Assembly: GCA_052055015.1 (NCBI GenBank)
Contig: JBQJIT010000018.1
DNA: 20,000 nt
Strand: one strand, 5' to 3'
Source: Malassezia furfur
Taxonomy: Eukaryota
The position numbers and the translations under genes are program-made. Positions 1 through 20,000 of this stretch are shown here, one piece after another (positions within the stretch are counted from its first letter, which is position 1; the number at the start of each line of letters is the position of its first letter). Under the pieces are notes generated by a model. It had not been told where the DNA came from, ran no database searches, and saw nothing but the letters and a program-made list of their open reading frames with translations.

Positions 1-481
1 CTTTTCGAGCGCCGCGTGCTTGCCCCGAGCGCCCTCGGTGTGGCCATAGCCAACGTCCTCGTGGTACGTGCCGTCGCGAAGCGTGATGCGCACGATTGCG
101 CTTACGCCGCAGTTGCACCGTCCGGACTCGGGGTGCACGTCGAGCTGCGTTAGAACGCGCACGTACGTAATCGATGTCGAGACTCGTCACGCTTGTCGAC
201 CACCCGTTGAAGCCAAACACCTCATTTGCCAGATCCACGACCTTCCACCCCTCGATGTACGTCAGTTTCGGCCCGCCGCCCGGCCCGGGACGTTGCGAGA
301 GGTATTCGGGGCCGAGCCGCTGGTTCAGCTTACACTGCAGCGTCGCGAGCCGTGTCGCGCTCCACACCGGCAGGCCCGTGTCCGGATCAATGTCACTGGC
401 GAGCGCTGAGCCGCCGACCCCCACCGGGAACGCGTCGTGCGCCGCACTGGGCGCAAAGGGTTCACGCGTCGTGCCGTCCAT
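1..481 (-). CDS. RAD52: DNA repair/recombination protein Rad52, 5' part (runs off the left edge). Exons 481-167 and 144-<1; intron 145-166 (22 nt).
   Basis: Not in the ORF track. Manual minus-strand translation gives MDGTTREP...LQCKLNQRLGPEYLSQRPGPGGGPKLTYIEGWKVVDLANEVFGFNGWSTSVTSLDIDY|LDVHPESGRCNCGVSAIVRITLRDGTYHEDVGYGHTEGARGKHAALEK. This has the Rad52 N-terminal motifs (LGPEY, YIEGW, ANEVFGFNGWS, EDVGYG). Intron GTACGT...CTAACGCAG, phase 0. Confidence 0.95.
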   Translation of the reverse strand, partial: MDGTTREPFAPSAAHDAFPVGVGGSALASDIDPDTGLPVWSATRLATLQCKLNQRLGPEYLSQRPGPGGGPKLTYIEGWKVVDLANEVFGFNGWSTSVTSLDIDYVRARSNAARRAPRVRTVQLRRKRNRAHHASRRHVPRGRWLWPHRGRSGQARGARK

Positions 482-523
482 CGCGTGCACTACGCCGACG
501 CGTCGTGTTGGATGGATCACGTG

Positions 524-1322
524 CTACCAAAGTTTAATGTACACGATGAACAGGAACAGCAGCGCGATTGCACCGAGGCTGCGTGAGGGCGAAAGGAAAC
601 GTACGGTGCATACTTGCGGATCATGGCGTCCACGTTGATCTTGCGTGCGGCACGGCGGTACTTAAGCGACTCGTCGCGCAGCGACGACGAGAGCGAAGAC
701 ATATCTGGGTGAGCACGGCCTGCGCGGGGCATACGTACGGTCGAGACTATCGCCGCGCCATAGCAAATCTTCCATGTTTTTGGTCATAATCTTTTGCACA
801 TCCTGCAGATCCTCGTTGAGCCGGTCGAGGTTCGAGTGTGTGACGCTCTCGGCCGTGCGCGAATCCGCGTAGAGGCGCTTGGTGCGCTGCATAAAGGTGT
901 CTGGCGTGAGTGTCGTGCCACCTACCGAACCCGACAAATGCATACGGCCGCAGGTTGCGCTGTTGCACCTGGTGCCCGTAGGAGAGCGCAAATTCCTTCG
1001 CGAGCTCGTCGAGGTAGCTGAACGCAAGCTTGCGTGGGTACGATTTGTCGGTGATCGTCAGGTATACGACCGACCTTGGGTCGCCCGGCGGTGGCTGAAC
1101 AAGGTAGCTGTGTGAGTGTGCGTGGGTGCGCGCGACGTACTGCAGCGCCATCGGCCCGCTCTCGATCGTGCACCGCGTCTCGGACATAGGCGTAAGCTTC
1201 CGGAAAATTGTCTTGGCCTGCTGCTTATACTTGGTCAGGTCAATGCCCGTCTGATCATCGTCGACGCTCTGCGCGAGCGGGAGCGCGTCCGAGACGCGCA
1301 CGACCTGCGTGGAGCGCACCAT
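524..1322 (-). CDS. SEC22: ER-Golgi R-SNARE Sec22 (longin + SNARE + C-terminal TM), about 226 aa. Exons 1322-1141, 1107-926, 900-739, 704-605, 578-524.
   Basis: MVRSTQVVRVSDALPLAQSVDD..., YPRKLAFSYLDEL, NLRPYAFVGF|DTFMQRTKRLY, DVQKIMTKNMEDLLWRGDSLD, SLKYRRAARKIN, and TM LGAIALLFLFIVYIKLW*. Four GT-AG introns (33, 25, 34, 26 nt) join the ORF fragments into a 681-nt CDS. Confidence 0.95.
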
Positions 1323-1388
1323 GACGATCCGGAGGCAGGCGCGTGGAGGGTCACGTGGCGCAAGGCGCGGCGGCTCGCCGTGACCACC

Positions 1389-2649
1389 ATGGACGCCAGT
1401 GCACCGCAGGAGGCCGATGGCCCGCCGCCGTTCGCCCGGCTGATTCTGGACTTGCGTGGCGTGTACTTTGTGATTGAGCGCGAAACGCTGATGAGCTTGC
1501 CCGAGTCCATCCTGCTTTGTCTCTTTCCCAACGGCCTCGTCCTTCCCGAGGGCGGGGCGGACGAGACGGGCGACACGACGATGCAAGACGAGCACGTATA
1601 CCACGTCGACGTACGTGCCACGCTGACGCCAGTTTGATGCGAATTGCTTGCAATACGTCCTCTCCTTCTTCCGGCGCGCCCAGGAGTACTTCTACGGCAC
1701 CGACAAGGCACCCGGTGTCTACCGCGGCATGGGCCGCGGTGCCAACATCCTTGACTTTGCCGATCCCATGCAGGGTACGGCTGGGTTTGGCAACCACTTT
1801 TATCTCCCGCTCTTCCACAAGCAGGCGATCATCGTGCTGCGCGAGGAGCTCGAATATTTCACGATCGCGCCAAAAGGCATGGCGCGCCCGGCCGTCGCGC
1901 GCCCGCCGGTGGGCAACCGCCCACCACAGGCCTCGGAGGAGTTTGCGCATCTTAAGGATGCATGCGGCGACGTGCTGCTGCAGCGCCGCCAGATCTTTAC
2001 GGCGCTTCAGCGCAACATCAACAAGGAGAACAACGTCGCCGAGCAGCACCTCATTGACATGCTGTGCATGAGCGGCTTCGAGCAGGACGACCTGTGGGGC
2101 TACCGCGCGCGCGAGGCGAACCGGTGCAGTATCACCAGTACTGCCATGGTGCTCCTCAAGACGGGCGTCACGCACCGCGGCGAGCTCCCCGAGGGCCGCG
2201 CCCCGCATCAGCCGGCGCCGCGCAAGCCGATCGGCGTGGAGCGTGCGGGGGTGGACCCAGACGCAGGGCTTGAGCCGCTGGACACGCACGTCTCCGAAGA
2301 GCAGCTCGGCGAGTGGGTCGACGATGCACAGGGTGGCTCGCTGCGCGTAAACCAGCACCAGCTGAACACCACGCAAAAGCTGCTCCTCTTTTGGCGCAAA
2401 CCTGCGGTACGTGCACACACTGACCACAGCGGAAATGCTGGTGGGACGGCATTGATCTGGTGGTGCCGAGCGACGGCATCGCGACCAAGCCGCAGCCCGC
2501 GCCGTCCTTGGCGACGCTCGGCACCCTCTCGCCGCAGGAGCGCACGTGGCTCGAGCAGGGCAAAGGCCTGCTCGTCCGCGTGTGGGTCCGCCGGATCTGG
2601 ACGCTCGAAGTGAGCTTGGTACGTGGGCGTGGGCTGACCACAGATTTGA
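1389..2649 (+). CDS. WHI2: Whi2-family BTB/POZ growth-regulation protein (phosphatase activator), about 396 aa. Exons 1389-1610, 1633-2406, 2430-2618, 2644-2649.
   Basis: LDLRGVYFVIERETLMSLPESILLCLFPNG, VD|FDANCLQYVL, IIVLREELEYFTI, EQHLIDMLCMSGF, KLLLFWRKPA|RKCWW and the Whi2-type ending RRIWTLEVSL|I*. Introns of 22, 23 and 25 nt, all GTACGT...CTGAC-NN-CAG. Confidence 0.92.
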
Positions 2650-2801
2650 GCGCATCGCGTGCAGCGCAAGAGATACCAATTGTAGCTATAGTATCGTCGG
2701 CAGGTCCTCGGAACGCAGCGCCCGGCGGCCACCCGCGGTTCGGGGCACGGGCGGGCCTACAGTGGGTGGATGGATCGTACGTCGTGGGTCTACCATTCAC
2801 G

Positions 2802-3405
2802 CTATGCCTTCATGTGCGAACGCAGGATCTCTTCGGCCATCTCGCGCACCGCCTGCTCGCTGCGCTGGTCGACGAGCGTCTCGGTGTCGAGCTTCTTGCC
2901 GATGCCGAGGGGATAGCGGCTGGGTGAGCGGGAGCGCGACATACCGGAAGAGCGACACCTTGGACGCGACGCCGGGCATCTCATGCATGCGCAGAAACTG
3001 CAGCCAGCGATCGACGGTCGCGTCGCTCGCATCGTACACCTTGATGCTCCGGCGGTGCGTGCGGCGCCAGAAATTTTCCTGGGATTTTTTATGAACAAAC
3101 GGCCCGCGTGGCACGGTCCAGAGCGAGGTGCGCGTCGGGAGCGACGCAATCCCGCCCGTGGGGATCTCGAGCGCCTGTGCACACCGCAACGCAAAGTCTG
3201 CGAAGAAGTCCAGGTCGAACGTCTTCTGGTTGTACGACTTGAGCTGCAGCGTCGCGACGTGCACACCGTGCGTCGGCTTCACCGGCGCGACCGGCGGAAT
3301 GAGTTCTGTGGCCACCGCCGGCTCGCTCGACTCGGAGCTGTACGCCCGCGTGAGCCGCCGCAACGCGCGTGGCACGCTCGCCGCTCGCTGCGCTGCCCAG
3401 AACAT
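2802..3405 (-). CDS. RSM10: Mitochondrial small-subunit ribosomal protein uS10m (Rsm10), about 192 aa. Exons 3405-2945 and 2919-2802.
   Basis: Arg-rich presequence MFWAAQRAASVPRALRRLTRAYSS; S10 motif LPTRTSLWTVPRGPFVHKKSQENFWRRTHRRSIK. A 25-nt intron at 2920-2944 (GTATGT...CTCACCCAG) joins to RYPLGIGKK...SHMKA*. Confidence 0.9.
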
Positions 3406-3448
3406 GGCGAGAAGACAGGCGTCGCGAATAAGATTAGTCAGCGGGTAT

Positions 3449-6400
3449 CTACGACGGCGCCGCGCGCGCAAGGCGCCGGGCGCGGCGCGCCTCGTAGGCG
3501 TCGCGCACCGCAGCGCGGATCACCTCGATGCTGCGGCTGCCCTCTTCCACGTTGGCCATCGCCGTGCGGAGGAGGGCGCGGACCTGGTCGGCGGTCCAGA
3601 CGAGATTATAAGATGTGCTGTAGTGCGCCGTACTCGGGTCGAACCCGGGCTGCACCGCGTTGGGAAACAGGGGGCAGTACACCAGCCGTACGTCGGGGAC
3701 GCGGCCCGCGGGCTTGCCGCGGCGCAGGCGCCACCCATCGAAGCGCTGCGCAAGGCGCGCCTCGTACTCGTTGCGGATGCGCTCCGCCTCGTCCTGCAAC
3801 GCCTCGGGGGTGTGCTCGGTGCCCTGCTCCTTGCGCTGCTGCGCCTGCGCCGCATTCGCCTCGCCCGCACGCTTCGCAGCCTCGTTGGCGGCTTGGGTCT
3901 CAGGTTGGATTTCGACGTGCAGGCCACACTCGCTCGCAAACTCGTGCAGGCGCTCGACAGCCGCCCCGAGCTTCACGTCGGAGGACGAGTCGAAGGAGAT
4001 CAGCACGTCGGCGTCGCGCTCGTCGCGTGCCAGCACGTGGTTCGGCAGGTTGTTCGACAGGCCGCTGTCCATGAGACGCAGGCGCTTGGAGTGCTCCCAC
4101 GACCACTCGTGCCGCGGCGCAGGTCCCCCATCGGACGGCGCCGCTGCGCCCTCGGCGGAGGGCCCAGGGACGTCGTAGAGCGGCGCCATGAATGTCTCGG
4201 GGTCGTAGTTTGACATGGACGAGGTGATCGACGCATCGCTGCCCCGCCTTTGCCGCAGCGGGTTCTCGACCGAGATGTCGCCGAGTTTGGGGATCGTGGG
4301 CATTTGGATGTCGGGCAGCTTGGGCATGTGCGGCAGTTGGACGTGGGGGAGCTTGGTGAGGAACGCGTTGAAGGGCGTAGCAGCGTCCGGTGCGGCTTCT
4401 GGCGTGGGAGCGTCCGGTGTGACGTCCGACGTCGCCTTGTCGGGCGTCGCATGGTCGGGCGCCGCCTTCTCCGGGCTGGCAGCCTCGGGCGCCGCCGCCG
4501 CCGCCGCCTCCGTTGGCGCGCCTTGGGGCGCCTCGTGCACACTCTCGCCCAGCTCCTTGAGCGGCGGCGCGAACAGCGCCGGCGCCGGCCGCTCGCCGTT
4601 GCCGGGCCGTGCGTTGAGCCCGTCGCTGGTGAGGGTACCGCCGAGGCGCGCGTCGCCGAGCGCCGGCCCCGATTGCATGGCAACCGCCTGTGCGGTCGGG
4701 TCGCTGTACGGCTGGTCGACGATGCTTGTCGGGCGCGTGCGTGGCTCGGCGGGCGGGTGCTGCCCCTCCGGCGGGCGCGCGGCGCTCGGCGCGGTGCTGG
4801 CAGCCGGCATCGAGATCGCGCGGTCGTCCATGCCGTGGCCATAGAACGGGTTGGGCTCGTCGGCGGCGCGGATCGGATTGCCCCAGCGCTTCTCCCAGCG
4901 CTTCATCTTGATAAACTCGTTCACCCAGCTGAGCAACGTCGACATGACCGTGCCCTCGGGAATCGATGCGAGCATCGTCGAGATGTAGGCGGTGAGCGGC
5001 CCCGCAGGTGCGCCGGTGCACTGCCCCACGATCATCGCGAGGTTCACCTCCGGCTCGCGCTTGAGCGACACGCCGTTCTTAAAGCGGCGGCCGTAGCTCC
5101 ACGTCGGGATCCACGCGCCGACATTGCGCGAGCCCAGCTCCAGCGGGCTGATCTCGTACCAGTCGTACCCGCCGCCGACGAGCTGCCGCGCCTCGTACGC
5201 GTCCGCATGCGGCGCGGTGCCCTGGGCGACCGCGGCGGGGTGCGGCGCCGGCGGCTGCTCGTGCGACACGGGCGCCGTCTGGCCCTTCTGCGGGCGCGGG
5301 CGCCACACGCGGCGCACGCCTGTGAGGATCGGTAGCGGCGCAGCGGCCTCGTGGAGCTTGGCGCGCTCCCACACCTTGGACCACTGGAACGAGGTGCGGC
5401 GCATCCCCTCGCTCGGCATATACTCGCCGTGCTCCGTGCTCTCGTGCACGGGCGTCTCCGGGCGCTTGGCGTCCGGGCCATGGTACGAGCAGTCCGTGCC
5501 AAACAGCGCGAGGGGGCGCGGCAGATACTGGTAGGAGAGCACGAGCGTCGCGTAAAAGTCCATCAGGCGGCACGCCACGCTGCGCCCGCGCGATTTGCGC
5601 AGCAGCGGGCCCAGCAGGTAGTAGATGCCGTTCTGGCTGCGCGCGACGCGGTCCATCGCCTGCACGCTCATCGGGTGCGCCTCCTCGTGCGCCATGGCGA
5701 GCAGGTGCGCAATCAGCACGTCGGTCGAGCAAGAGGCGATCGTGTACAGCGCCGCAATCGTCCAGCAGCTCCCGCTCACGCCCGACGCCCACGTCGTGCA
5801 CTGCCAGAGGCCCGTGTTCTCCGCCTCCTTGATGAAGCCCGCGTACGCATACATCGCGCGATAGCCGCCGCCCGAGCCGCCGATCGCGATGAGCGGCACG
5901 TCGTCGGGGTGCACGTACGTGCCCTCGGGCAGCCGCAGAAAGTGCGCGAGCGCATTGTTGCCCTCGGACGAGATGCGCCGCCGCCGCTGCGCTATGAACG
6001 CGACCTCGTCATCGTGCAGCTCCGGCGAACAGCGCACCTTGGCGTCCCACTCGAGCTCAGGATAGGTCGCCGTGTCCTGAGTGTCCTGGTCGACCTGCGC
6101 GGCGAGCTGCGACAGGTCCGACCACCGCCACCGCCATCGCTGCAGCCGCGGCAGCGCCGTGAGCCGCGGCGGCGGCGGCAGATTGAGTGGTAGCTGGGGG
6201 GGTGGGAAGAGATAGGGGAAGCGCCGCTCCTGCCACCACGGCGTAGACGGCGCCTCCGCCTCGGCCGCCGTGGCTCCAGGTGCCGCATCGGATTCGGCTG
6301 CGCCATCGCCACGCCGCGTCGCGTTGGCGAGCAACTGCTGCATCCGGCCCCACGACGTCGCGCCGTGCCCGCCCTCGGTCGACTCATACCACACCCAGTG

Positions 6401-6523: not shown

Positions 6524-6586
6524 CGTGCGTCGGCGCGAAGGCCACGGCGCATTAGGCGCACGCCCACGTGCAGGCACAGTGGAGGC

Positions 6587-8176
6587 TTACCAACCGAGTG
6601 CGCCGGGGTGCCACGGCAGGTCCTCCTCCGTGTCCTCCACACGCGTCTGCGCGTCGATCTCGGCGAGCAACACGTGCAGCAGCGCACGCGTCGCCTCGTA
6701 CAGCTGCGGCGACATGCCGGGCACGGGCGCGTAGGTCAGCACGCTCACCACGTCGCTCGTCGGGTACGGCGGGAGCGTTGACGCTCGCGTCGACCCCGCG
6801 TCCGTCTCGCGCGCCTCCTCCTCGTCCTTGGCCTCCTCCGCCGCATCGGACGCGTTGCGCGCGAGCGCCTTCTGTGTGCGCTCACGGATCGTCACAGCGT
6901 GCTCACCAAATTGCTTTTCGAGCGCCGCTTGTGTCTCGGGCACACCGCGTGTATAGGTAGTCAGAATGGTGTTTTGCGCGGCGCGCACATCACTAGTCGC
7001 CGCCTCGATGGCCTCGCCCATCTTGCTCTGCTGCTCCTGCATCGCTTTTTCGCGGGCAAACGACGTGCGAATCTCGTTGGTGATGTAGGTGCGGCAGAAC
7101 TGGCACTGTGCATACGAAGCCTCCATGTGCGCGTACATAGTCATCTCGTCCATCGCGCCGACCCGACGCCGGCCGGGCAACTTGGAGAGGTCCACCAGCT
7201 CAAACGTGGGCGCACGGTGCACCATCTTTTGGCGTATGCGTGCCCGCGCGACACATGTGTGAAACTCACCAAGACTCGACTTGCAGCTCAGCAGGCGTGG
7301 CATGCTCTGGTCGGCAAACGCCAGCGCCGAGCCAGAAAAGAGCTTCTGGTGGTGCTTGTTGTTCTGCGGCACCCCCATTTTCATGCCGAGCTGCAGGATC
7401 GTGCGGATGAGCTTTAAGCAGTCCTCCACATGCTTGTCCGCGAACTTGAGCGCCTGGCGCGCACGCCGCTCACGGTCGATCTCGGTGGGAATCAGCCGGT
7501 GCAAGGCCGACTGCAACTCGACTTCCCATCGCAGCGTCTCGAGCACCGGGAATGCGCTCACGGTCTCGGGCGGGAAGATGCGCGCACCAAGCATCTGCAG
7601 TTGCGTACGTAGCGCATCGTAGCGCGCGCGCGCACTCACGAGGGCATCGCGTGTGCGCTCCAGCTCCGCCTGGCGCGCAACGTCGGCGTCCACCTTGGCT
7701 TGTGCCGCGTCGCGCGCCTGTATCGCGGCAGTCAACTCGGCCTTGAGGTCTAGCATGTTCCGCGAGCGGCGCTGCAGTGCAGGCACAAGGCGCACGAGCA
7801 CCGCCTTGGCCGACTTGTCGTACGCGGCTTGCCGCTTTGCTCTGCGTCAGTGGAGGTGAACGCACGCTGCATCCTGGGCACGCTTCAGCACGACCGACGC
7901 AGTCTCGATCGAGCCCGAAATTTTCCATAGATCACGCTTGTTCGTCTCCTGTTGTGTGGGCACGTCGCCCAGGCTGACGAGCTCGGCTGCATCAGTGGCT
8001 GCACCTACCGTACAGACGGGTATACTGTGTAAGTGTTGTAGACGCACCTCGTCTCCGCTCTCTTGGAACTGTGGGAAATACGACGGCGGTGACGCCCAGG
8101 CGGGCTCGCGCGCGAGCACCACGCTTGGGTCGTGTGGCGCGCCTCCATTCGCCGACTGCATTGTCTTGGCTGTCAT
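6587..8176 (-). CDS. Hypothetical helical/coiled-coil protein, about 506 aa. Exons 8176-8048, 8024-8009 (16-nt micro-exon), 7986-7866, 7841-6587.
   Basis: The 404-aa ORF 6587-7801 extends upstream through three consensus introns: 8025-8047 (GTGCGT...CTTACACAG), 7987-8008 (GTAGGT...CTGATGCAG) and 7842-7865 (GTGCGT...CTGACGCAG). The spliced CDS is 1521 nt and in frame. The start could be 8176 or 8161. Heptad-like segments and a PPPY-like LPPY near the C-terminus. Family not recognised. Confidence 0.7.
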
Positions 8177-8225
8177 CCCGCTCGGACTGCGCGGGGAAGA
8201 GTGGAGGTGTCTTTGTACATCGGCC

Positions 8226-9378
8226 ATGGAGGGCGCCGAGGCAAATGACAACGCCGCGCGCCCGGCGGCCTCCGCCGAGGCGATCGATGGTGGCACGGGG
8301 TACAAGTACCAGCAGGAGATTGCACAGATGGTATGCCCCGTACACTCACCTAGATGTTCGTCTCGACCGAAGTCGAGAATCCAGACCCACAAGTCACCCG
8401 GCTGATCGAAGATATCGTGCGCAACCAGGTGATCGAGATGGTGCGTGTGCGCGCCACTGACGCAGATCATCCAATCGCGTTGGCTTGCGATGCGCCGCTC
8501 GTCTAAATACCTCATGCCAGAGGACCTAATTTTCCTGATCCGGTACGATCGCGCCAAGGTCAATCGGCTGCGTACGTACCTGAGCTGGAAGGACGTGCGC
8601 AAGAACGCCAAGGACTCGGGCGGCGACGGTGGCGCAGGGCCGGCCGCGGGAGGGGATGCTGGCGAGGGCATCGAGGACACCGCCGTCGACGGGCCCCTCC
8701 GCAACAACAAGCGCAAACTCAAGCTCCCCTGGGAGCTCTCTGCCCTCTTTTTTGAATACCCGCTCGTCGCAAACCCAAACCCAGGCATGGGCGAAGAGGC
8801 TGAAGACGAGGACGAAGATACCATCGAAACCAACGAGGACAGCCTGCGCCGCCTCAAGGCCGCCGACGAGACGACGCGGCGTATGACGCGCGAGGAGTAC
8901 GTCTTCTACTCCGAGTGCCGGCAGGCTTCGTTCACTTTCCGCAAGGGTATGTGGTGCGACTCACTCAGCGAAACGCTTCCGCGAATTTATTAACTCGAGT
9001 CATTACCTGGACGTCAAGCCGAGCGACGACACGATCGATATTCTGGGGTTCCTGGCCTTTGAGGTGGTCCACGAACTGTGCACGTCGGCGATGCGCATCA
9101 AGCGCGAATGGGAGGAACGGGCGCAGGGGGTGCAGGCACGTACACAGCGCACGTTTGAGCACACCGATGCAAAAGAAGACGGCGCCCCCGACGAACACGC
9201 CGAAGAGGCAGCATGCACCCTGTTCAGTCTCCCACCCAGCGCTGAGCCACCGCTCGAGGCCTGGCACATCCGCGAGGCGTTTGCGCAGCTTCAGCGCGAC
9301 CGCCGCCTGCTTGAGACGGGACGCAGGACGGCAGGACCGACAGGCGGCTTGCGTCGTACACAGGTATTTGTCATCTAG
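8226..9378 (+). CDS. SPT3: SAGA complex subunit Spt3, about 360 aa. Exons 8226-8330, 8354-8440, 8466-8946, 8969-9378.
   Basis: YKYQQEIAQM|MFVSTEVENPD...LIEDIVRNQVIEM|II..., EDLIFLIRYDRAKVNRLRTYLSWKDVRKNAKD, RLKAADETTRRMTREEYVFYSECRQASFTFRK|AKRFREF, DDTIDILGFLAFEVV. Introns of 23, 25 and 22 nt. Confidence 0.95.
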
Positions 9379-10423
9379 CTACAATGCATCGTAACGCTGC
9401 TGGGTGCTGGCCTTGGCATGCTCTTGGTACGACCGACGTTCGCTCGGCTCCACCAAGGCGCCGCTGCCCAGTCCGGCACGCTGGGCACCCACGCGGGGGG
9501 CAATGGGGGCTTGTTGGGGTATATGCTCGGCACCATCCGCCATCTTGGCCAGTAGTTGGTAGCCAACGTTGGAGGCATCGAGCGGTGCTGGCTCTGCCGA
9601 GACAAGCGGCTCCGTCCGCAGCTCCGAAGGCCCGACACGGGGTGCAGGGTGGGGCGCATCGGGGTGTAGACCCCGACGCGCAGAGGCACGGTCGCGGTAC
9701 AGCGGCCGCTCATCCACCGACGCAGGGCCGGGCGCAACAGGCTTTAGATAGACCTTCTTGAGCTCCCGCAGGTGTTGCTTCGTCTCGTGGCGCGCCTTGC
9801 GCTTCTCACTTTGTGTCTTGCGCGCCTGGTGCGGGCCTTTCAGCGCTTTCGTCGGTGCATCCTGCGCATTCGTACGTGCCTGCGGTGCGAGCGAAATTTC
9901 GTTCGCGCCGTCGGGAGACAGTTGGCACGCGGAGCAGCTCGCCCATGCATTGCCGTGCATATGGACCTCGAATATGTTGCTCTGTACACCAAAACGGATC
10001 ACATCAAGATGCTGCAGATCAAATGGACGGCTCGCGTGCTTCTCCGGAGAGAGCCGGAAAAACAGCTCCTCCGGAATTTGGTGAACTCGGCTGCGGGACA
10101 TCGGCGCTGGGTTTGGCGAGTCGGGCCGGTAGACAAACGTCCCATGTGTAGAGCCAGTGTCCGTTAAAGACACATTTGGCGGCATATCAAACTGTTTCTT
10201 GCGGTATATGGCGAAGATGCGCGCATGGTGCTTGCTAACCTCCATAGACGGCAGTCGGAGACGCGGGGTATACGAGCGATCGCGGCCCTAAGATGAGCGC
10301 TACACGTACCACAGAAACGCCCTCGTGACGTCCGTCTACCAGTGCTACCTGCTTGGCGGACGGTAGCACATCGGACGCGAGCTTCACGAGGCGCACGAGC
10401 GCGTCGTCCGAGGTATCGAGCAT
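9379..10423 (-). CDS. FHA + G-patch-like protein (AGGF1-like architecture), about 340 aa. Exons 10423-10310 and 10287-9379.
   Basis: Removing a 22-nt intron (10288-10309, GTACGT...CTCATCTTAG) restores the FHA signature VSV|GRDR...MEVSKHHARI...DTGSTHGTFV...LDVIRFG. Then HMHGNAWASCSAC, YRDRASARR and a G-patch-like PLDASNVGYQLLAKM...RAGLG. Start codon uncertain (MLDTSDD at 10423 chosen). Confidence 0.8.
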
Positions 10424-10512
10424 ACCGCTGCAGCCGCCAGCGCACGCTCCACAAGCGAACAAGGGGCAGGATGGGCATATGTATAGACGAATGCAAGTTC
10501 GTTACAACACAA

Positions 10513-10621
10513 GACAAGGTGCCGGAGCGGTTAACGGGTACGCCTCGAATTCAGTTCGACACCGGTTGCGGTGGTTAGCGTATGGGCTCTGCCCGCACAG
10601 GTTCGAATCCTGTTCTTGTCG
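10513..10621 (+). tRNA. tRNA-Ser(CGA) with a 27-nt intron (10550-10576)
   Basis: Acceptor stem GACAAGG/TCTTGTC plus discriminator G. D-arm GCCGGAGCGGTTAACGGG. Anticodon stem TACGC/GCGTA with loop CT-CGA-A|A and anticodon at 10546-10548. Long variable arm GGGC-TCT-GCCC; T-arm ACAGG-TTCGAAT-CCTGT. Mature length 82 nt. Confidence 0.95.
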
Positions 10622-10625
10622 CTTC

Positions 10626-10641
10626 TTTTTTGTTATTTTTT
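10626..10641 (+). terminator. RNA polymerase III oligo-T terminator for the tRNA
   Basis: Two T-runs (TTTTTT-GTTA-TTTTTT) immediately 3' of the tRNA gene. Confidence 0.75.
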
Positions 10642-10712
10642 GCTTGAGTATATGAGATATGCAATTATTTTTAATTCTTCGCGGCATTGTACCTTACTTA
10701 CCTTCTGACAAA

Positions 10713-13234
10713 ATGGCCCTGCGAGCAGTGCGCGGACTGCGGTCTGCTATGCCGACGCGCCGTCTGAGTGTGCCTGTTGTACAGGTGACGCGTGCGAGCT
10801 CGACGTTTGCGACGCGCCGCCCCGCCGTGCGAAGCGCGCGCGTGTGTGCCTGGATGGGTGCATCCCACACTCGCTTGCTCGCGACCGAGGCGGATAGTGC
10901 GACGGGCAATGTGACGCCTGTCGTGAGTGAGGCCGACATCGCGCGGCTGCTGCGCCAGCGCAATGTGGGTATCAGCGCACACATCGACAGCGGGAAGACC
11001 ACGCTGACCGAGCGTGTGCTGTACTACACGGGCCGCATCAAGGACATCCACGAAGTGCGTGGGCGCGACGAGGTCGGTGCCAAGATGGACAGCATGGACC
11101 TCGAGCGTGAAAAGGGTATTACCATCCAGTCTGCAGCTACCTACTGTAACTGGAAGGCGACACCTCCGACCGAGACGAGCAACGTTACCGGCGACGCGGC
11201 GCTCGACACCGAGTCGACCAGCAAGAAAGAAGACTTCCACATCAACATCATTGACACGCCCGGCCACGTCGACTTCACCATCGAGGTCGAGCGTGCTCTG
11301 CGTGTCCTGGACGGTGCTGTGCTTGTGCTTTGTGCCGTCTCGGGTGTGCAGTCGCAGACCATCACGGTGGATCGCCAGATGCGCCGCTACAATGTGCCGC
11401 GCCTGAGTTTCATTAACAAGATGGATCGCGCCGGTGCGAACCCGTGGCGTGTCGTGGAGCAAATCCGCACCAAGCTGCGCATGCCGGCCGCGGCACTTCA
11501 GGTGCCCATAGCGTCCGAGGAGAGCCTCGACGGTCTCGTGGACCTGGTGCGCTGGAAGGCCGTGTACAACGAGGGCACCAAGGGTAACGTCGTGCGCGAG
11601 ACCGACGAGATCCCTGCTGAGGTGCTGGAGCTCGCCAAGGAGAAGCGTACTGAGTTGATCGAGCAGCTCGCAGATGTGGACGACGAGATGGCCGAGATCT
11701 TCATCGAGGAGCGCGAGCCTACTATTGCCGAGCTGGCGGCCGCCATCCGCCGTGCGACGGTGGCGTGCCGTTTCTCGCCCGTGTTCATGGGGACGGCCAT
11801 CAAGAACAAGGGTGTGCAGGCGCTGCTGGATGGTATGTGTGCCTACCTGCCGAACCCTATGGAGGCGCCTGCGATCGCCAACGACACGCGGCGTGCCAAG
11901 CAGATTGCGCAGCAGGCTACTGAGGAGGGCCAGGCCAACGACGAGATTGTGTCGTCCGCCCAGGCCGGCTCCGAGGTGCAGCTGGTGCCCGCCAGCGACG
12001 CGCCCCTGGTGGGTCTGGCGTTCAAGCTGGAAGAGAGCCGCTTCGGCCAGCTCACCTACATGCGTGTGTACCAGGGCCAGCTACGTCGGGGTGGTGTGAT
12101 TTTCAACTCGCGTACCGGCAAGAAGGTCAAGGTGCCGCGTCTGGTCCGCATGCACTCGAACGACATGGAGGACGTCAATGAGATCGGGCCCGGCGAGATC
12201 TGCGCCATGTTCGGTGTGGAGTGCTCGTCCGGCGACACCTTCACGGACGGCAGCACGTCGCTGTCCATGTCGGCCATGTTTGTGCCCGACCCGGTCATTT
12301 CGCTGTCCCTTGCTCCCGAGGGCAAAGACGGCTCGCAGAACTTCTCGCGTGCGCTGAACCGCTTCCAGAAGGAGGACCCTACGTTCCGTGTCCACGTCGA
12401 CAGTGAGTCGGGCGAGACGATCATCTCGGGCATGGGTGAGCTGCACCTGGAGATTTATGTGGAGCGCATGCGCCGTGAATACAATGTGCCGTGCAAGACG
12501 GGCAAGCCGCGTGTCGCCTTCCGTGAGACGATCGGCCAGCCTGCCAAGTTCAACTACACCCACAAGAAGCAGACGGGTGGTGCCGGTCAGTTTGGTCGTG
12601 TGATTGGCTACATCGAGCCGATGCGGATGGACGAGGAGACGGGCAAGGACACAGCGTTTGAGAACAGCGTTGTGGGTGGCAATATCCCCTCGGGCTACAT
12701 CCCTGCCTGTGAAAAGGGCTTCTACGATGCGCTCGAGAAGGGCTCGCTTGCGGGGTACCCCGTGTGCGGTGTCCGTTTCGTGCTGGAGGATGGTGCGGCG
12801 CACAGCGTCGACTCGTCCGAACTGGCATTCCGTATCGCCACGGTCGCGGCCTTCCGCGAGGCGTTCAACAATGCGCAGCCCATGATCCTCGAGCCCAAGA
12901 TGACCGTCGAGGTGGTGGCCCCGGTGGAGTTCCAGGGTGCGGTCATTGGCGCGCTCAACCAGCGCAAGGGCACTATCGAGGACACCGAGGTCCGCGAGGA
13001 CGAGTTCACGATCCGTGCCGAGGTCAGCTTGAACGACATGTTTGGCTATTCGAGCCAGCGTACGTATATTCTCGCTCACCACAGTCCGCGGCCTCACGCA
13101 GGGCAAGGGCGAGTTCTCTATGGAGTACAAGAAGCACGAGCCTGTCATGCCCAACATCCAGGCGGAGATGCAGAGTGGTGTGTACCTCCTTCCTTGCTGA
13201 CGCAGCCTATCGCAAGAGCCAAGAAAAGAAGTAG
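10713..13234 (+). CDS. MEF1: Mitochondrial translation elongation factor G1, about 822 aa. Exons 10713-13059, 13085-13177, 13206-13234.
   Basis: Arg-rich presequence, then [70 protein letters not shown]. Introns 13060-13084 (25 nt) and 13178-13205 (28 nt) restore [19 protein letters not shown]...AYRKSQEKK*. Confidence 0.97.
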
Positions 13235-13457
13235 CCGGAATAGCACCACTTATGAAACGGACTCCATACGATGCTTGCGAAATGGCATGCATGCCGACGT
13301 GACATAAGCTTGCTTGTGTGTCTCGGCACTAGCACATGGCCATACTGCCCTGGAGCGGCCATCGTCTGTCTCGGCTAACCAAAAATACAATCTGTCAAAT
13401 TGGGACTATTTGGCCCAAATCTTTCAGGTGGAGGAAGGGTGTGCACGGACCACATCC

Positions 13458-14893
13458 TCACGCTTGCAGCAGCAGGGACGGTACCGCCATATCGCTGCTC
13501 GATTCGTCGAAATAGGGGTCAAACTCGGCCTTGTTGAACTGTGCCGGAGCGGGCGATGCATGTGACGACCCCGCCGCACCTGCTATCGACCCGAGCACCG
13601 CAAAGCGCTCGGCCAAGGTAGGGTAGGACTGGAAATAGGCGTTGTATAGTGGGTCGGCAAAGAGCGGCGCATCGGCCGCCAGGTACAGCTTGAGCAGTGC
13701 ATTCTCAAAGCACACTTTCAGGTCCGCACCTGTCGCGAAACTCGATGCCTCGTAGTCGACCCAGTCATTCACCAACTCATCCTCCACAACCATCTGTGCA
13801 CACCGCACAGCGAAGCGACTGGGGGTCAGCAAGTCCATACGTACCGATCCTTTGCACACACGGAGCGTCGCGACAGAAAGTTGATCTGCAGCGTTGCGGC
13901 CACCAGCAGCGGCCGCAAGAGGAGCGCCGCCAGCGCACTGCCAACAACGAGCGGCGGCGTATCGATCACGGCCGGCATGCCCTGCCCCGCTGCGCCAAAT
14001 CCAAATGCACGCAGGAACAGAGGGTTGCGGTTGACCAGCTGCACAAAAAGCACCGTAAAGACGAGATTAAATGCGAAGACGGTGCGCTGGGCGAACATCG
14101 ACACCTTGGTGCTGCACTCGTACGTGCGGAGCGCCTCGGCCTCCTCCCTGGTCAGCTGGAGGAGCTCCTCGGGGTGCATATAGCCCTTTTCGTCACTGTC
14201 GGCGGGCGATGCGGCAGTCGACGCCTCGATCGGCGCGATGCATTGCGTTGAAGGCATTGAAGGCATGAGCGGCACGTTGATAAAGAAGACCACCATCGGG
14301 ATCACGCATGCGGCAGCCGTATCGGCCACTGCGACTGCACCTGACTGCAGTGGCCATGCGCCGAGCTGCGTCGTGCTAGCGACATGCACTGCGCCCAGCA
14401 CGAAGATCGCCGCTACTGTCGCGCGATCGAGGAAGAAGGCGGCAAGCGACGGCCGCCTCGCGAGGCCGACGCGCCAACACTCTTCGATGTACATGGGTGT
14501 GCGCGTCACCGAGCGTAGGAGCTGGAGCAGCGCGAGCCACACGAGGCTCTGCAGGAAGGCGGCATGTGGCTGATCCAGGCGGACCAGGCACCCTGCCCAG
14601 TTCCATGCGATTGGCAGGAGACCGAACTGCACAGAGCACACGATGGTGTTGAGCACGATGTTGGCGCGCCCCATCTGGGCTGTAAAGGTGCGCTGGAAGC
14701 GCTGGGCGCTGAACCGGAACTCGTCTGGGGTAACGCTGGACGTGAGTACGACAGGAACGGCCTTGGACCGGCTCAAACGCCGCTGCCGTACAAGCAGGAC
14801 GACCTTCATGATCCAGTCCAGTCCTGCTATCAGCACGACCAAGGTGGCCCACGACGCGGCATCGCGCCCCTGCATCGCCTCGCTCCACGGCAT
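13458..14893 (-). CDS. Divergent Ste24/peptidase M48-like membrane protein lacking catalytic residues (candidate pseudo-peptidase), about 469 aa. Exons 14893-13845 and 13818-13458.
   Basis: Co-linear similarity to the neighbouring STE24: VRQRRL vs VRQLRL, FLRAFGF vs LYRAFGF, DPLYNAYFQSYPTLAERF vs DSLYSAYHHSHPTLTERL. HELGH is replaced by YECST. 26-nt intron at 13819-13844. The start may be 14893 or the next Met (MQGRD). Confidence 0.82.
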
Positions 14894-14966
14894 GATAGCT
14901 CCGAGAGGGCCTTTGGGCCCCGCTGGGTGCTCTTACATAATAATAGGCTACCGTACTGCCTACTGC

Positions 14967-16605
14967 CTAATGCGTCTTTTTGGTGGAGGCCACCCGGTCG
15001 AGCGCCACGAGCCGCTCGGTGAGCGTGGGGTGAGAATGGTGGTAGGCGCTGTACAGAGAATCGTGGTACATAGACGAAAGACTGTGTGAGCATGTGCGCA
15101 ACGTACTTGTGTATGTGCAGCTTGACGAGCGAGCGCTTGAGGAGCTCTGTGTACGGCTCTTGCTCCTCGGGCAGCGCATCCCCAATCGTCTCAGAGGGCA
15201 GGCGGTGCGCAGGCACCTCGCTCAGGCGGTCGACCCAGTCGACCACCGTCGCGCTTGGCTGTACATCGTCGCTGTCACCGCCCTTGGCCTCAATCAGACG
15301 CATCGCCTCGATCTCGGCAGCCGTTCTGGGCGCGCGCGGAAGCTCGGCGGCAAAGCTGGGTTAGGCACTTGCCCACGTACCGGTCAGCGGCGTACTCCAT
15401 ACGGCGCACAGCCGCATTGATACCGAAGCGGAGCACCGCGTCAGTGGGGTTCAGAACCAACTGGAACAGCTCCAGGCCGACCATCACGGGCAGGTACGGC
15501 TCCACGACCAGCGCGCCAGGCGCCACGCGCTGCACAAAGCCAAACGCACGGTACAGCGAGGCGTTGTGGATGAACAGCGTGAAGAGCGAGAGCATGAGCA
15601 CGAGGTTGAGCTGCGACATAAGCACGAGCTTCACCGGGTCCGAGTGTGCCCAGTGTCCCAGCTCGTGCGCCAGCACCGCCTCGATCTCTTCGGGCGTCGA
15701 CTTCTCAATGAGCGTGTCGTAGATGACTGGGTCAGCTAGCGCGAGAGCAACATACCGATGTGCTTGCCGCCGCCGGGCACAATGCCGTAAAAGTACGCAT
15801 TCGAGTGCGAGCTGCGCTTGCTCCCGTCGATCACGTACAGGTGCTTGAGCGGGAAGTGCAGCGCACTCGCAAGCGCCACGACGCGGTCGCGCAGGGCGCC
15901 CTCGGAGAGCGGCGTGAGCTTGTTAAAGAACGGTTGGATGACGAGCGGGTAGAGCACGCTGCCGAACAGGATGACCACCGTGAAGAGCAGCATGACGTAC
16001 ACGACAAAGTAGTCTCCCGCCCAGCGGATCACCCACACGGCGAGCATCACGAGCGGCGCACCGATGGCGGCGCCGACGACCCACCCCTTGATGGTGTCGC
16101 TGACGAACGTCGCGAGCGTGAGCTTGTTGAACCCGTGGCGCTCCTCAACGACAAAGTTGCGGTACAGCCCGAGCGGGATGCCCACCACCTCGTGCATTGC
16201 CGAGTTCACAATGACCCACATCGCCGACTTGGTCACCTCGTTCGCCGGCGCACCGACGGCGGTGAGCAGGTCGCTGGCCCACACCCACGCAAGCGCGTAG
16301 AAATCGAAGTAGACGGCGGCGAGGTTGTATGCATGCGCAATCGCGTCCGAGACCAGCGCAAAGCGCGCCTTGTCGCGGCCGTATGCCTGGCTTTTGGTAA
16401 AGGTGTCGAGCGACACGTGGGGTACGAGCGCCTTGGGCGGCATCGTCTTGTCGTACAGGCGCAACTGGCGCACCGCTACGTACGTCTCGAACAGGTACAC
16501 GCCCCACAGCAGGCAGATCACCAGCTGCTTCCAGGGGATCGTGGGCGTGTCGAGGTACGCGGCGGCGCCCTTAATTTCGCTCGCGGCGTGCGCGAGCCAG
16601 GTCAT
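14967..16605 (-). CDS. STE24: CAAX prenyl protease Ste24 (peptidase M48), about 519 aa. Exons 16605-15756, 15726-15381, 15355-15107, 15081-14967.
   Basis: SQAYGRDKARF, FVVEERHGFNK, LYVIDGSKRSSHSNAYFYG, KHI|VIYDTL, EIEAVLAHELGHW (HExxH), RRMEYAADR|F, YSAYHHSHPTLTERL, and a C-terminal KKTH (KKxx ER-retrieval motif). Introns of 29, 25 and 25 nt. Confidence 0.97.
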
Positions 16606-16625
16606 GGTGGTATGGGTTTAGTCAG

Positions 16626-18866
16626 CTACCAGAAGTCGTCCTCGTCGTCGCGGCCGCGCTGGCGCTTGGACGCGACGGCCTGTGCGCGGTACATGTGTGC
16701 AATCTGCTCGGGCGCCGTCGACTCTTCGGGCGCCTTGTCGTCGCGGATGCGGAGGAAGCGCGGGAAGCGCAGCGAGATGCCGCGCGCGTCGATGAGGCCC
16801 TTGGCCGCCGTGTACACTGGGCTCAGCGACAGGTCCGCCGTGAGCACCTCCCAGACGATTTTTGGCGCGAAATAGACCTGGGTGAGCAGCGCACACGTAC
16901 ATCGGGTTTTGCATCGCCGACATCATAGTATCCCTTTTTCTGCGTAAGCTCCAGTGCCTTGAGCGTGGTGTAGTGCGCGTCCAGATCGGCCTCGGAGAAG
17001 CCGGTGCCGATCTTGCAGATGCTCTGGTACGTCTCCGAGTCCTCGTCGTCTGCGTCAGCAACAGCACACGCACAGCACGCAAGGAGGAAGGCACCGTACA
17101 CGTTGGTGCGCTTGCCCTTGCCGTAGTAGCCGCCGATTACGGTCAGATCGAGGCTGTCGCCCGTGTCGGACACTGGGTGAGTCGTGCGGCGTACAATAGT
17201 CCTTTTTGAGCTTGAGCCAGTTGATCGAGCGGCGGCTTGGTTCGTACGTCGCGTCGGCGCCGTCGAGCATCTTGACCATGAGTCCCTCGCAGCCGCTTGC
17301 GACGCTCTCGTCCAGGAACGTCTGGATCTCTTCGGTGGTGTGGCAGTCGCGGCGCGTCGCAAAGTCAAACTCGTCGGCGACCGGAACAAAGTGCGCAAAC
17401 AGCTTGGCGCGGCGCTCCGAGAGCGCGAGATGCAGCAGCGGCTCACCGTTCAGGTAGAGCAGGTCGAAGCCAAACAGCTTTACAAACACCTTAATGTCCT
17501 CCGCCTTGACATCCTTGCGCTTCCGCCGGCTCAGCTCCTGGAAGGGCAACAGGCGCCCGACACTGGCGTCCGGCCGCTCGGCACGCGCAACGTGCAGCGG
17601 CTGCCACGCGACCGCCTCGGCGTCGATCACAAAGCTCTGCACGTCCTCGCCGAGGCACCGCGGGACCTGCACGACCAAGTCGGGGTATTTCATACTCATG
17701 TCTTCCGAGTTGCGCGAAAAGACACGCACATTCAGCTTGCCCGCCGCGTCGCGGAAGCCGTGCACCTGCGCGCGCTCGCCGTCGTACTTGTACTCACACG
17801 TAAACGTGCGGTTCTCGAACCGGTCGAGCACCTCGCCGATCTCCTTGGTGGGCTTGGCGAGCATGGGCTTGAGGGGGATGCCGGGCGTGAGCTTGACGCG
17901 CTCGCGCAGGCCGTCGATACCGTGCTCGAGCAGTGCAGGGATGAGCACGTTGTACGACGGCAGCTCGCTGAATACGGCCTTGACGATGTTGGCGTCATGC
18001 TCGAGCTTCGCGGCCAGCTCTTCACGGTCCATCGTGTGCGCCTCGTCGCCAAGCGACGCCAGCACCACGGCATGTGCGACGGCGACCAGCACCGTCTTTT
18101 CGGCGAGCCCAATGCGCAGCTTGCCCTCCAAGCTGCGGATGAGGTACTTGCTTTCGTCGCCCGTGCACGCGGCGAGCAGCCGCTTGATGATGCCGAGCTT
18201 CTTGTCCTGCGACTTGGTACCAGAGGCGCGGGCGATTTCGGTGAGCTGCTTGAACACCGACGGGACGGTCAGCGTCTGCGTTTGGAACATGGTCGGCTGG
18301 TGCTTGCGCGAGGCAAGGGCGACGAGGCCCAAGTCGCCCTGCTTCTCGAGGTCCTTTTTGATGCGCGCAACTTCGCGCCCGGTGCTCTGCGCGATCGCCT
18401 TGACGAGGAGGCCCTCGCCGATACCGAGCTCGAGACCCTCATAGTCCGGGCACAGCCTGTTGATGCATAGGTACACGGTGTACAGCAGGTTCTCGCTCGC
18501 GGAGGCCACACTGTCCTGGCGGCAGTGGGCGATCACCTGGACAAAGAGGTCCGTGACGAGCTGCAGGATTTCGAGGCGCTTCGTCGTTGCCTCGACCTTG
18601 GCAAAGGTCTCGACGAGTGTCGCGTACTTGATCGGCGTGCCGCGCTTGCCCACGGGTTTGGGGGGCGCGGTGCTCTGCAGCACGATCTGTGCCGTGGTTT
18701 CGGCGGCGTCGGTCTCGGGGATCTCGTCGTCGGCGTCGTCCGCTCCCGCGTCGGCCTCGGCCTCGATGCGTGTGCGCTTTGCAGCTGGCTCGTCTGCCTT
18801 GCCAAACAGGGCACTGTGTCAGTGCGACAAGCCCACGTACTCGAGCGTGCGCTGCTGCTTCGCCAT
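16626..18866 (-). CDS. CDC9: ATP-dependent DNA ligase I, about 714 aa. Exons 18866-18841, 18813-17195, 17172-17074, 17049-16901, 16877-16626.
   Basis: N-terminal PIP-box-like QRTL|DALF, ELGIGE, YLIRSLEGKLRIGLAEKT, PLKPMLAKPTK, active site CEYKYDGERAQVH, FDLLYLNG, EGLMVK, WLKLKKDY|L, LLAC|YD, SLRFPRFLRIRDDK. Introns of 27, 22, 24 and 23 nt; the 2145-nt CDS is in frame. Confidence 0.97.
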
Positions 18867-18872
18867 GGTCGA

Positions 18873-18895
18873 ACGCGTCGCGTCGCGTCGCGCGT
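18873..18895. repeat. Tandem CGCGT array beginning with an ACGCGT (MluI/MCB-like) hexamer in the CDC9-SMC2 divergent gap
   Basis: Sequence A-CGCGT-CGCGT-CGCGT-CGCGCGT. The repeat is seen directly; a regulatory role is speculative. Confidence 0.5.
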
Positions 18896-18968
18896 GTCCA
18901 ACAGGCCACGTGGCCTTTCGCATCACCACCCAACAGCCACCCCGGGGGCCCTGACGGCGGCGTGCGGC

Positions 18969-20000
18969 ATGCGGATCGAGGAGCTGATTCTCGACGGCTT
19001 CAAGAGGTGCGTGGGCGTGTGCCACTAACGCAGCTATCCCGTGCGTACGCATGTGCGTGGCTTCGACCCGAGCTTCAACGCGATCACGGGGCTGAATGGC
19101 AGCGGGAAGAGCAACATTCTCGACGCCATCTGCTTCGTGCTGGGCCTCACGAACCTCAGCTCGGTGCGCGCGTCGAACATCCAGGATCTGATCTACAAGC
19201 GTGGCCAGGCGGGCGTGACCAAGGCGTCGGTCACGATCGTCTTTGACAATGCGGACCGCGAGCGGTCGCCCGTGTCGTTTGAGAACTGCGCGACGATCAC
19301 TGTCACGCGCCAGATCGCGATGGGCGGCGTGTCCAAGTACCTGATCAACGGGCACAAGGCGACGCAGCAGGCGGTGCAGAACATGTTCCAGAGCGTCCAG
19401 CTGAACATCAACAACCCCAACTTCCTCATCATGCAGGGCAAAATCACCAAGGTGCTCAACATGAAGCCTGCCGAGGTGCTGTCGATGATCGAGGAGGCGG
19501 CGGGCACGCGCATGTTTGAGGAGCGCAAGGAGCGCGCGTTCCGCACCATGGCGAAGAAGGACCAAAAGGTGCGCGAGATCACCGCGCTCCTCCAGGAGGA
19601 GATCAAGCCCAAGCTGGACCGCCTGCGCGACGAAAAGCGCGCGTTCCTCGAGTACCAAAAGGCCTCGACCGAGCTGGAGCGTGCCACGCGCCTGCACAAG
19701 GCGTACGAGTGGCACACGCTGCAGCGCAAGCTCGCGCAGCGCACCAACGAGGGTGCGGCGCAGGCCAAGGCGCGCCTCGCCGCGTACGCCAGCGACGTCG
19801 CGGCGTTCACGCGGCAGCTCGGCGCGCTCGACGACGAGCTGCACAAGCTGCGTGGCCAGCGCGATGCCCAGCTTGCGGCCGACGGCGAGCAGGACGCGCT
19901 CGTGCAGCGCACCAAGGCGCTTGCGCACGAGCTGGTCGAGGCGACGACGCAGCGCGACTTCCGGCGCACGGCGCGCGACGAGGAGGCCGCGCACGCCGCC
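18969..20000 (+). CDS. SMC2: Condensin subunit Smc2, 5' part (runs off the right edge). Exons 18969-19006 and 19034->20000.
   Basis: Not in the ORF track as a whole. [50 protein letters not shown]...[23 protein letters not shown]...[25 protein letters not shown]...[11 protein letters not shown]. 27-nt intron at 19007-19033 (GTGCGT...CTAACGCAG). Confidence 0.96.

Follow-up and report, generated by a model that had tools for sequence, protein, structure and literature searches.

Very short GT-AG introns in a gene-dense 20-kb stretch of Malassezia furfur DNA

The DNA considered here is a stretch of 20,000 nucleotides (nt) of Malassezia furfur contig JBQJIT010000018.1 (assembly GCA_052055015.1), referred to below as the window, and the elements in question are 27 segments of 22–34 nt that interrupt its protein-coding genes. 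With a probability of roughly 0.93, we consider them true spliceosomal introns of the GT-AG (U2) type that are removed constitutively, in nuclear genes of M. furfur or of a strain very near to it; they follow the known Malassezia style of genome compaction, at its short end. The signals, the restored reading frames and, for most of the introns, junctions exact to the residue were observed directly. Every segment starts with GT and ends with AG on the coding strand, including each of the six 22-nt segments, and removal restores the frame in 27/27. Thirteen gene models were built with exactly these 27 introns, and all of them become one long reading frame once the segments are taken out; 11 are complete, with ATG and stop, and those of Rad52 and SMC2 extend beyond the window. 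Introns are present in 12 of the 13 genes, i.e., 27 introns within 20 kb.

Intron lengths and splice signals

A first-pass annotation, made from the sequence alone, had counted 27 introns of 22–34 nt with none below 22; our recount at the coordinates in Table 1 is identical in lengths (22 nt, six; 23 nt, four; 24 nt, two; 25 nt, seven; 26 nt, two; 27 nt, two; and one each of 28, 29, 33, and 34 nt) and in the median of 25 nt. The mean is 25.07 nt and the mode is 25 nt. Intron phases are split 9/9/9. The 5′ site fits GTRNGY in 27/27, with GTACGT in 14, GTGCGT in five, GTATGT in three, GTAGGT in two, and GTATGC, GTGTGT, and GTACGC in one each. Near the 3′ end, all 27 carry a YTNAY box, i.e., CTNAC or CTNAT (CTCAC in 11, CTGAC in 10, CTAAC in three, and CTTAC, CTGAT, and CTCAT in one each), whose A lies 5 nt from the intron end in 20 introns, 6 nt in six, and 7 nt in one; counted from the 5′ end, this A is never nearer than position 16. 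The introns end with CAG (25) or TAG (two).

The layout is a 6-nt 5′ signal, a spacer of 6–18 nt, and a 3′ module of 9–11 nt, the spacer alone being variable. In our reading, an intron of this kind would consist of little beyond three signals, with the 3′ module made of CTNAC/T, 1–3 nt, and YAG, and with the presumed branch A 5–7 nt from the 3′ end. Recognition would probably take place across the intron (intron definition), with the A of CTNAC, assigned by its motif, as the putative branch point. With the branch A only 5 nt from the 3′ end, a polypyrimidine tract cannot fit between it and AG, and the 3′ splice site may be recognized from the branch box plus AG.

We defined a full-signal site as a segment of 18–35 nt with GTRNGY, a YTNAY box whose A lies 4–9 nt from the 3′ end, and YAG; each distinct 3′ end on either strand was counted once. 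Thirty such sites lie in the window, versus a mean of 4.7 (standard deviation 2.2, maximum 13) in 200 dinucleotide-preserving shuffles; the enrichment is far above chance. All 27 introns also came out of a scan for GT..AG segments with a 5′ hexamer and a branch-like box whose removal links open frames. Motif matches that lie antisense or in the wrong frame, for example 14824–14852, were taken as chance.

If kept, 22 of the 27 segments would break the frame, and retention leads to a frameshift or a premature stop in 25/27. Lengths that are multiples of three number 5/27 (binomial P = 0.07), three of these five having an in-frame stop inside; the two multiples of three that have none are 1108–1140 and 17050–17073. 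When the ten introns of two syntenic contigs described below (L001/L002) are added, multiples of three make up 6/37 (P = 0.017), orthologous introns not being independent. Nested alternatives of 17–21 nt are present at some sites, and alternative 5′ sites are nested in several introns; the shorter, in-frame candidates 16878–16894 and 8447–8465 were rejected, since gap-free alignments to homologs or to intronless orthologs contradict them.

Tests of the junctions and alternative explanations

The junctions were tested in three ways: Pfam profile coordinates of adjacent exons were compared across the intron; full-length homologs, found with single exons, were aligned to the spliced models; and syntenic Malassezia-like metagenome contigs were searched, the ortholog peptide being compared with the spliced model across the junction. 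For the last, five contigs were compared with window positions 8200–20000; they share the gene order of the window and fall into three species-level groups (L001/L002, L004, and L005/L012). In the ligase of L001/L002, introns of 22 and 23 nt jointly keep the frame and tblastn ran through them; this was resolved by direct reading. Relatives either have no intron, reading across the junction, or have an intron at the same site.

Junctions exact to the residue were obtained for 20/27 introns (ligase three, WHI2-like three, SNARE four, Ste24 three, EF-G two, SMC2 one, FHA one, and histone-fold three). Another six have weaker support (Rad52 one, the uncharacterised gene g6 three, the Ste24 paralog one, and the N-terminal ligase intron), and one, in uS10m, is placed by frame and signals. 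Pfam coordinates abut across introns in Rad52, the histone-fold gene, EF-G, Ste24, the C-terminal domain of the ligase, and SMC2. The four SNARE junctions are contiguous in 5/5 covering homologs (1108–1140), 8/8, 6/8, and 5/8, and the exceptions are truncated or unspliced predictions; the aligned ligase homologs include records named Pseudozyma, Sporisorium, Ceraceosorus, Cryptococcus, and Phanerochaete. Intronless orthologs with the same peptide across the junction were found for both EF-G sites, two histone-fold sites, and the FHA site, and L004 reads across the three sites in Ste24, the three in the C-terminal part of the ligase, and the one in SMC2 with the same peptide as the spliced model. 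The conserved motifs that intron removal had been said to restore (a slash marks the junction: KPA/RKCWW in WHI2, KKDY/L in the ligase, GFK/SY in SMC2, and V/GR in FHA) were all reproduced. A Pfam search at E values up to 10 gave no match for ten short or unexplained exons, and neither the last uS10m exon nor Ste24 exon 3 of 4 (82 residues) had a match in the PDB.

Could the segments instead be sequencing or assembly indels, or traces of pseudogene decay? Apart from the 22 of 27 that break the frame, nothing speaks for it. The three signals recur in one order on the coding strand of all 27. Independent M. furfur proteins in public databases imply these interruptions as well, introns stand at the same sites in independent metagenome contigs, and all 13 genes are otherwise intact; we regard the probability of this explanation as close to negligible. 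A milder doubt is that one to three of the 27 were mis-called, i.e., are retained or use a neighboring boundary, in which case the count would be slightly off. The last exon after 2920–2944 has no match and gives no homology test, and retention of that intron would yield a 49-codon tail; 18814–18840 and the three introns of g6 match models in public records that may themselves be predictions; and several introns have the nested alternative 5′ sites mentioned above. All seven of these less-supported introns, however, show the full signal set with the branch A 5–7 nt from the 3′ end, the arrangement around a g6 micro-exon recurs in L002, and the intron of the Ste24 paralog (g10) sits at a position paralogous to a verified Ste24 intron, so that we find such mis-calling unlikely.

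Several points do weigh against taking all 27 as constitutively removed introns. The introns are known from DNA and protein comparison, so that splicing efficiency and exact site use are predictions; likewise, the putative branch point is a motif-based assignment. Intron 2920–2944 rests on signals and frame, and six others rest on Pfam contiguity, a possibly predicted public model, a paralogous position, or a poorly conserved N-terminus. Retention of 1108–1140 or 17050–17073 would not be caught by a premature stop.

Table 1. The 27 introns of the window and the g6 micro-exon. P and L numbers denote protein records and syntenic metagenome contigs, respectively; scores are those of the alignments across the junction.
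Gene	Feature	Coordinates	Strand	Length (nt)	Evidence and remarks
Rad52	intron, phase 0	145..166	-	22	GTACGT...CTAAC..CAG; support by Pfam contiguity (Rad52_Rad22 profile position 60 at residue 118/119 upstream, 64 at residue 3 downstream)
Sec22-type longin SNARE	intron	579..604	-	26	contiguous in 5/8 homologs; early end or long insertion in the other 3/8
SNARE	intron, longest of the 27	705..738	-	34	gap-free in 6/8; P0256 is an unspliced read-through
SNARE	intron	901..925	-	25	gap-free in 8/8 homologs
SNARE	intron, multiple of three, no in-frame stop	1108..1140	-	33	no gap in 5/5 covering homologs
WHI2-like	intron	1611..1632	+	22	gap-free in 11/12 homologs; the twelfth begins later
WHI2-like	intron	2407..2429	+	23	KPA/RKCWW gap-free in 11/12; P0129 reads into the intron
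WHI2-like	intron, last exon is one codon plus stop	2619..2643	+	25	C-terminus ..SL/I-stop in 9/12 homologs
uS10m	intron	2920..2944	-	25	frame and signals only; alignment of the upstream exon with yeast uS10m extends to the last exon residue (uS10m residue 143 of 203); last exon of 38 residues, no PDB or Pfam match
g6	intron, in-frame stop inside	7842..7865	-	24	equals P0121 across the junction; P0126 and P0127 gap-free
g6	intron downstream of micro-exon	7987..8008	-	22	matches P0121; L002 counterpart 26 nt
g6	micro-exon	8009..8024	-	16	in P0121; L002 counterpart 16 nt (8807-8822)
g6	intron upstream of micro-exon	8025..8047	-	23	matches P0121; L002 23 nt at the same place
Histone-fold	intron	8331..8353	+	23	L002 25 nt at the same site, spliced peptide conserved; next exon at Pfam position 11
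Histone-fold	intron	8441..8465	+	25	Pfam positions 39/42 abut; L004 reads across; L002 24 nt
Histone-fold	intron	8947..8968	+	22	L002, L004, and L012 intronless, read across, score 103 each
FHA-domain	intron	10288..10309	-	22	L002, L004, and L012 intronless, read across; FHA profile begins at position 4 on the first residue of the downstream exon
Mitochondrial EF-G	intron	13060..13084	+	25	EFG_C positions 60/62 abut; five loci intronless, score 118
EF-G	intron before the last 8 codons	13178..13205	+	28	L001, L004, and L012 intronless, align to the last residue, same stop
Ste24 paralog (g10)	intron, phase 2, in-frame stop	13819..13844	-	26	position homologous to Ste24 15356-15380 (phase 2)
Ste24	intron	15082..15106	-	25	alignment to Ste24p 4il3 418-452 begins at the first residue of the downstream exon; L004 intronless; orthologous introns 22 nt (L001/L002) and 53 nt (L005/L012)
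Ste24	intron	15356..15380	-	25	L004 intronless; 22 nt (L001/L002), 74 or 80 nt (L005, L012)
Ste24	intron	15727..15755	-	29	five loci intronless, scores 105-114; Peptidase_M48 positions 47/51 close across the junction
DNA ligase I	intron	16878..16900	-	23	gap-free in 9/11 homologs; kept in P0001; L004 intronless; L001 23 nt; L005/L012 49 nt
DNA ligase I	intron, multiple of three, no in-frame stop	17050..17073	-	24	gap-free in 10/11 homologs; L004, L005, and L012 intronless (scores 130-131); L001/L002 22 nt
DNA ligase I	intron	17173..17194	-	22	KKDY/L gap-free in 10/11 homologs; five loci intronless
DNA ligase I	intron after codon 8, in-frame stop inside	18814..18840	-	27	N-terminus equals P0001 and resembles records named M. 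psittaci and M. nana; region poorly conserved beyond
SMC2	intron	19007..19033	+	27	L004 intronless, reads across, score 123; SMC_N position fits; orthologous introns 36 nt (L005/L012) and 26 nt (L001)

Syntenic relatives and the lower length limit

Intron presence differs widely between species of the genus. In L004 (guanine-plus-cytosine content, GC, 0.60), the intron is absent at 12 of the 13 testable sites; at the remaining one, in g6, the alignment was too poor for a call (score 10). Ten introns were verified in L001/L002 (GC 0.60–0.62), of 22, 23, 23, 22, 22, 26, 25, 24, 23, and 26 nt, with the box A 5–7 nt from the 3′ end and at position 17–21 from the 5′ end; L001 also has a 23-nt ligase intron (12003–12025) at a site without an intron in the window. 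The g6 micro-exon of 16 nt is repeated in L002, where it lies between introns of 23 and 26 nt (23 and 22 nt in the window). A 21-nt segment of L001 (2805–2825, minus strand) with full signals joins two short frames beside a long one; it could not be placed in a gene and was not counted.

L005/L012 (GC 0.55) have introns at four shared sites, of 74–80, 53, 49, and 36 nt, with a longer stretch between branch and AG and, in the 74–80-nt intron, a long pyrimidine run before the 3′ end. Shared introns are thus 36–80 nt in the 55%-GC contigs versus 22–27 nt in the 60–64%-GC contigs. The longer introns of L005/L012 suggest that extreme compaction and the fixed 5-nt spacing from branch to intron end are derived in some Malassezia lineages.

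The first-pass annotation had read the pile-up of introns at 22 nt as a hard steric minimum that reveals a modified spliceosome. In its favor, no intron below 22 nt was found among the 27 of the window or the ten of L001/L002, and 9/37 are exactly 22 nt. However, the mode in the window is 25 nt (seven introns) and not 22 nt (six), with n only 27. P0003, an unspliced prediction from a relative whose ligase is 83% identical, carries 7, 8, and 7 extra residues in frame precisely where three ligase junctions lie, and codon by codon these residues fit a GT start, a box of the CTNAC type whose A is 5 nt from the end, and CAG. Judged from the protein, these insertions would imply introns of 21, 24, and 21 nt in a close relative, i.e., two below the proposed minimum. 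The observed minima in the window, the box A at position 16 from the 5′ end and 5 nt from there to the 3′ end, sum to 21. Nor is 22 nt a general limit, the smaller introns of Paramecium and of chlorarachniophyte nucleomorphs being named in PMC3629993. We therefore find a steric minimum at 22 nt that reveals a modified spliceosome quite improbable; the pile-up more plausibly marks the short side of a length distribution that two separate spacings limit to about 21 nt. The observations here have no bearing on whether the spliceosome is modified.

Under this two-spacing reading, the lower length limit would be the sum of two separate minima, about 16 nt to the branch A and 5 nt from it to the 3′ end, or 21–22 nt in all. 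A stronger form, in which the branch A in the M. furfur lineage can never lie closer than about 16 nt to the 5′ end and sits 5 nt from the 3′ end, making 21 nt a physical minimum, is put forward here as a tentative and rather doubtful proposal.

Gene content, public records, and known short-intron systems

The four leading gene models are Rad52, a Sec22-type longin SNARE, a WHI2-like protein, and the mitochondrial ribosomal protein uS10m. A lysophospholipase-type protein of 1024 residues is the intronless gene. The others are g6 (database matches to Malassezia or unnamed records only), a TFIID-18kDa (SPT3/TAF13-type) histone fold, an FHA-domain protein, and mitochondrial EF-G, followed by the Ste24 paralog g10, the Ste24 CAAX protease, DNA ligase I, and SMC2 (by Pfam). 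Paralog g10 (13461–14893, minus strand) stands in tandem with Ste24, to which it is 24% identical; it matches Peptidase_M48_N weakly, lacks HExxH, and has one intron position in common with Ste24. L004 and L005/L012 carry a paralog at the corresponding position, and L001/L002 have none.

GC ranges from 0.60 to 0.71 per 2 kb across the window, and gene density is very high. Two convergent genes have abutting stop codons at 9376–9381, with 0 nt between them; the ligase stop and the Ste24 start are 20 nt apart (16606–16625), and two divergent start codons are 49 nt apart (8177–8225). With packing this extreme, untranslated regions must overlap neighboring genes. A transfer RNA (tRNA) of 109 nt at 10513–10621 (plus strand) was recognized by Rfam at 42 bits; by reading the sequence it looks like a long-variable-arm type, possibly Ser, with an intron after the anticodon. 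It is the sole match of the Rfam scan of the window, which gave no match to a spliceosomal RNA gene, and was missed by ARAGORN, whose run on the window reported no tRNA.

Over the query exons, the top protein match of the longest ligase exon is M. furfur P0001 (100% identity), that of the longest g6 exon is M. furfur P0121 (100%), and that of the longest WHI2-like exon is M. furfur P0128 (98%). Given these matches and the few residue differences between the window and the three records, the source would be M. furfur or a very close strain whose sequence is not identical.

P0121 and P0128 agree with the splicing modeled here, and one of the three compared public M. furfur records, P0001, is wrong. 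P0001 has 656 residues versus 714 in the spliced ligase model. It follows the model up to intron 16878–16900 with a single substitution and then runs into a 25-residue frameshift tail, which is the exact read-through of that 23-nt intron as it stands in the window; in consequence, P0001 is without the last 83 residues of the conserved C-terminal domain (window 16629–16900, minus strand). P0003, P0129, and P0256, from relatives, are unspliced read-throughs. The earlier worry that such introns lead to mis-annotation is therefore real. Apart from splicing, the ligase codon at 17165–17167 (minus strand), two residues after the 22-nt intron and in a conserved stretch, encodes D in the window and G in P0001 and all ten other aligned homologs; the difference could reflect either the strain or a wrong base.

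The Malassezia literature already describes very short introns, and the introns here are not a new kind of thing; the expectation that they were known from this genus is borne out by papers on M. sympodialis (PMC5389616) and M. restricta (PMC9241646) and by a review (PMC7426719) that speaks of genes with "very short introns". The curated M. sympodialis annotation has 5350 introns with a mean of 30 bp and RNA-sequencing support for 99% (Zhu et al. 2017, PMC5389616, Table 2), and its intron size distribution is Supplementary Figure S8 according to the legend, so that a mode or minimum may be published there. M. restricta introns have a mean of 37.2 and a median of 30 (PMC9241646), and the annotation of that species used 20 and 15 as the shortest permitted introns (PMC6473144); an older M. 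globosa annotation gave an average intron of 76–79 (PMC4634964). M. sympodialis and M. restricta resemble the window in genus, compact genome, and very short GT-AG introns, and the introns of the window (mean 25.1, median 25) compare with the mean of 30 bp in the former and the median of 30 in the latter.

The accessible text of the M. furfur hybridisation paper makes no mention of introns (PMC9040865). Our literature search, in which subscription journals were thinly covered, found no M. furfur intron statistics and nothing on Malassezia splice signals, branch points, branch-to-AG spacing, or minimum intron length. Within that search, five details seem not to be in print and are of modest interest: the constant distance from branch to AG, the two-part bound near 21 nt, the longer orthologous introns in a lower-GC congener, the conserved 16-nt micro-exon, and the mis-annotated ligase.

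Outside the genus, the microsporidian Encephalitozoon cuniculi has introns of 22–76 nt with strict motifs (PMC3629993), unlike the window in that the latter has 27 introns in 20 kb and in 12/13 genes. Myxozoans and dicyemids, with median introns of 22–27 bp and reduced splice-site motifs (PMC13644364), are similar in length; they are animals, however, and their reduced motifs contrast with the strong motifs here. The same 2026 survey lists ciliates, Microsporidia, and Dicyemida as lineages with introns below 30 bp, and Malassezia has no occurrence in its accessible text. Paramecium tetraurelia has more than 90,000 introns averaging 25 nt (10.1101/2021.08.05.455221), in line with the first-pass comparison of the size range with that genus. 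A shortage of lengths that are multiples of three is possibly similar in the window, where the count above comes from a small n. From the same small n, the frameshift or premature stop expected on retention in 25/27 recalls what is described for Paramecium introns under translational surveillance. Paramecium is a ciliate and not a fungus, and the window introns are dominated by a strong CTNAC box at a fixed distance from AG. Paramecium introns are not known to have such a box.

The practical point is annotation quality: DNA ligase I, an essential gene, is mis-annotated through one missed 23-nt intron, and work on gene content, drug targets, or phylogenomics that uses such proteomes inherits read-through errors. 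In addition, Malassezia belongs among the lineages with introns below 30 nt, and with its strong fixed-distance signals it is cleaner than the ciliates for asking what sets the minimum intron size. If the two-part geometry is true, the 3′ splice site would be recognized without the large U2AF-type subunit having to bind a tract, and a genetically tractable fungus with thousands of near-minimal introns would be at hand for studies of the size limit.

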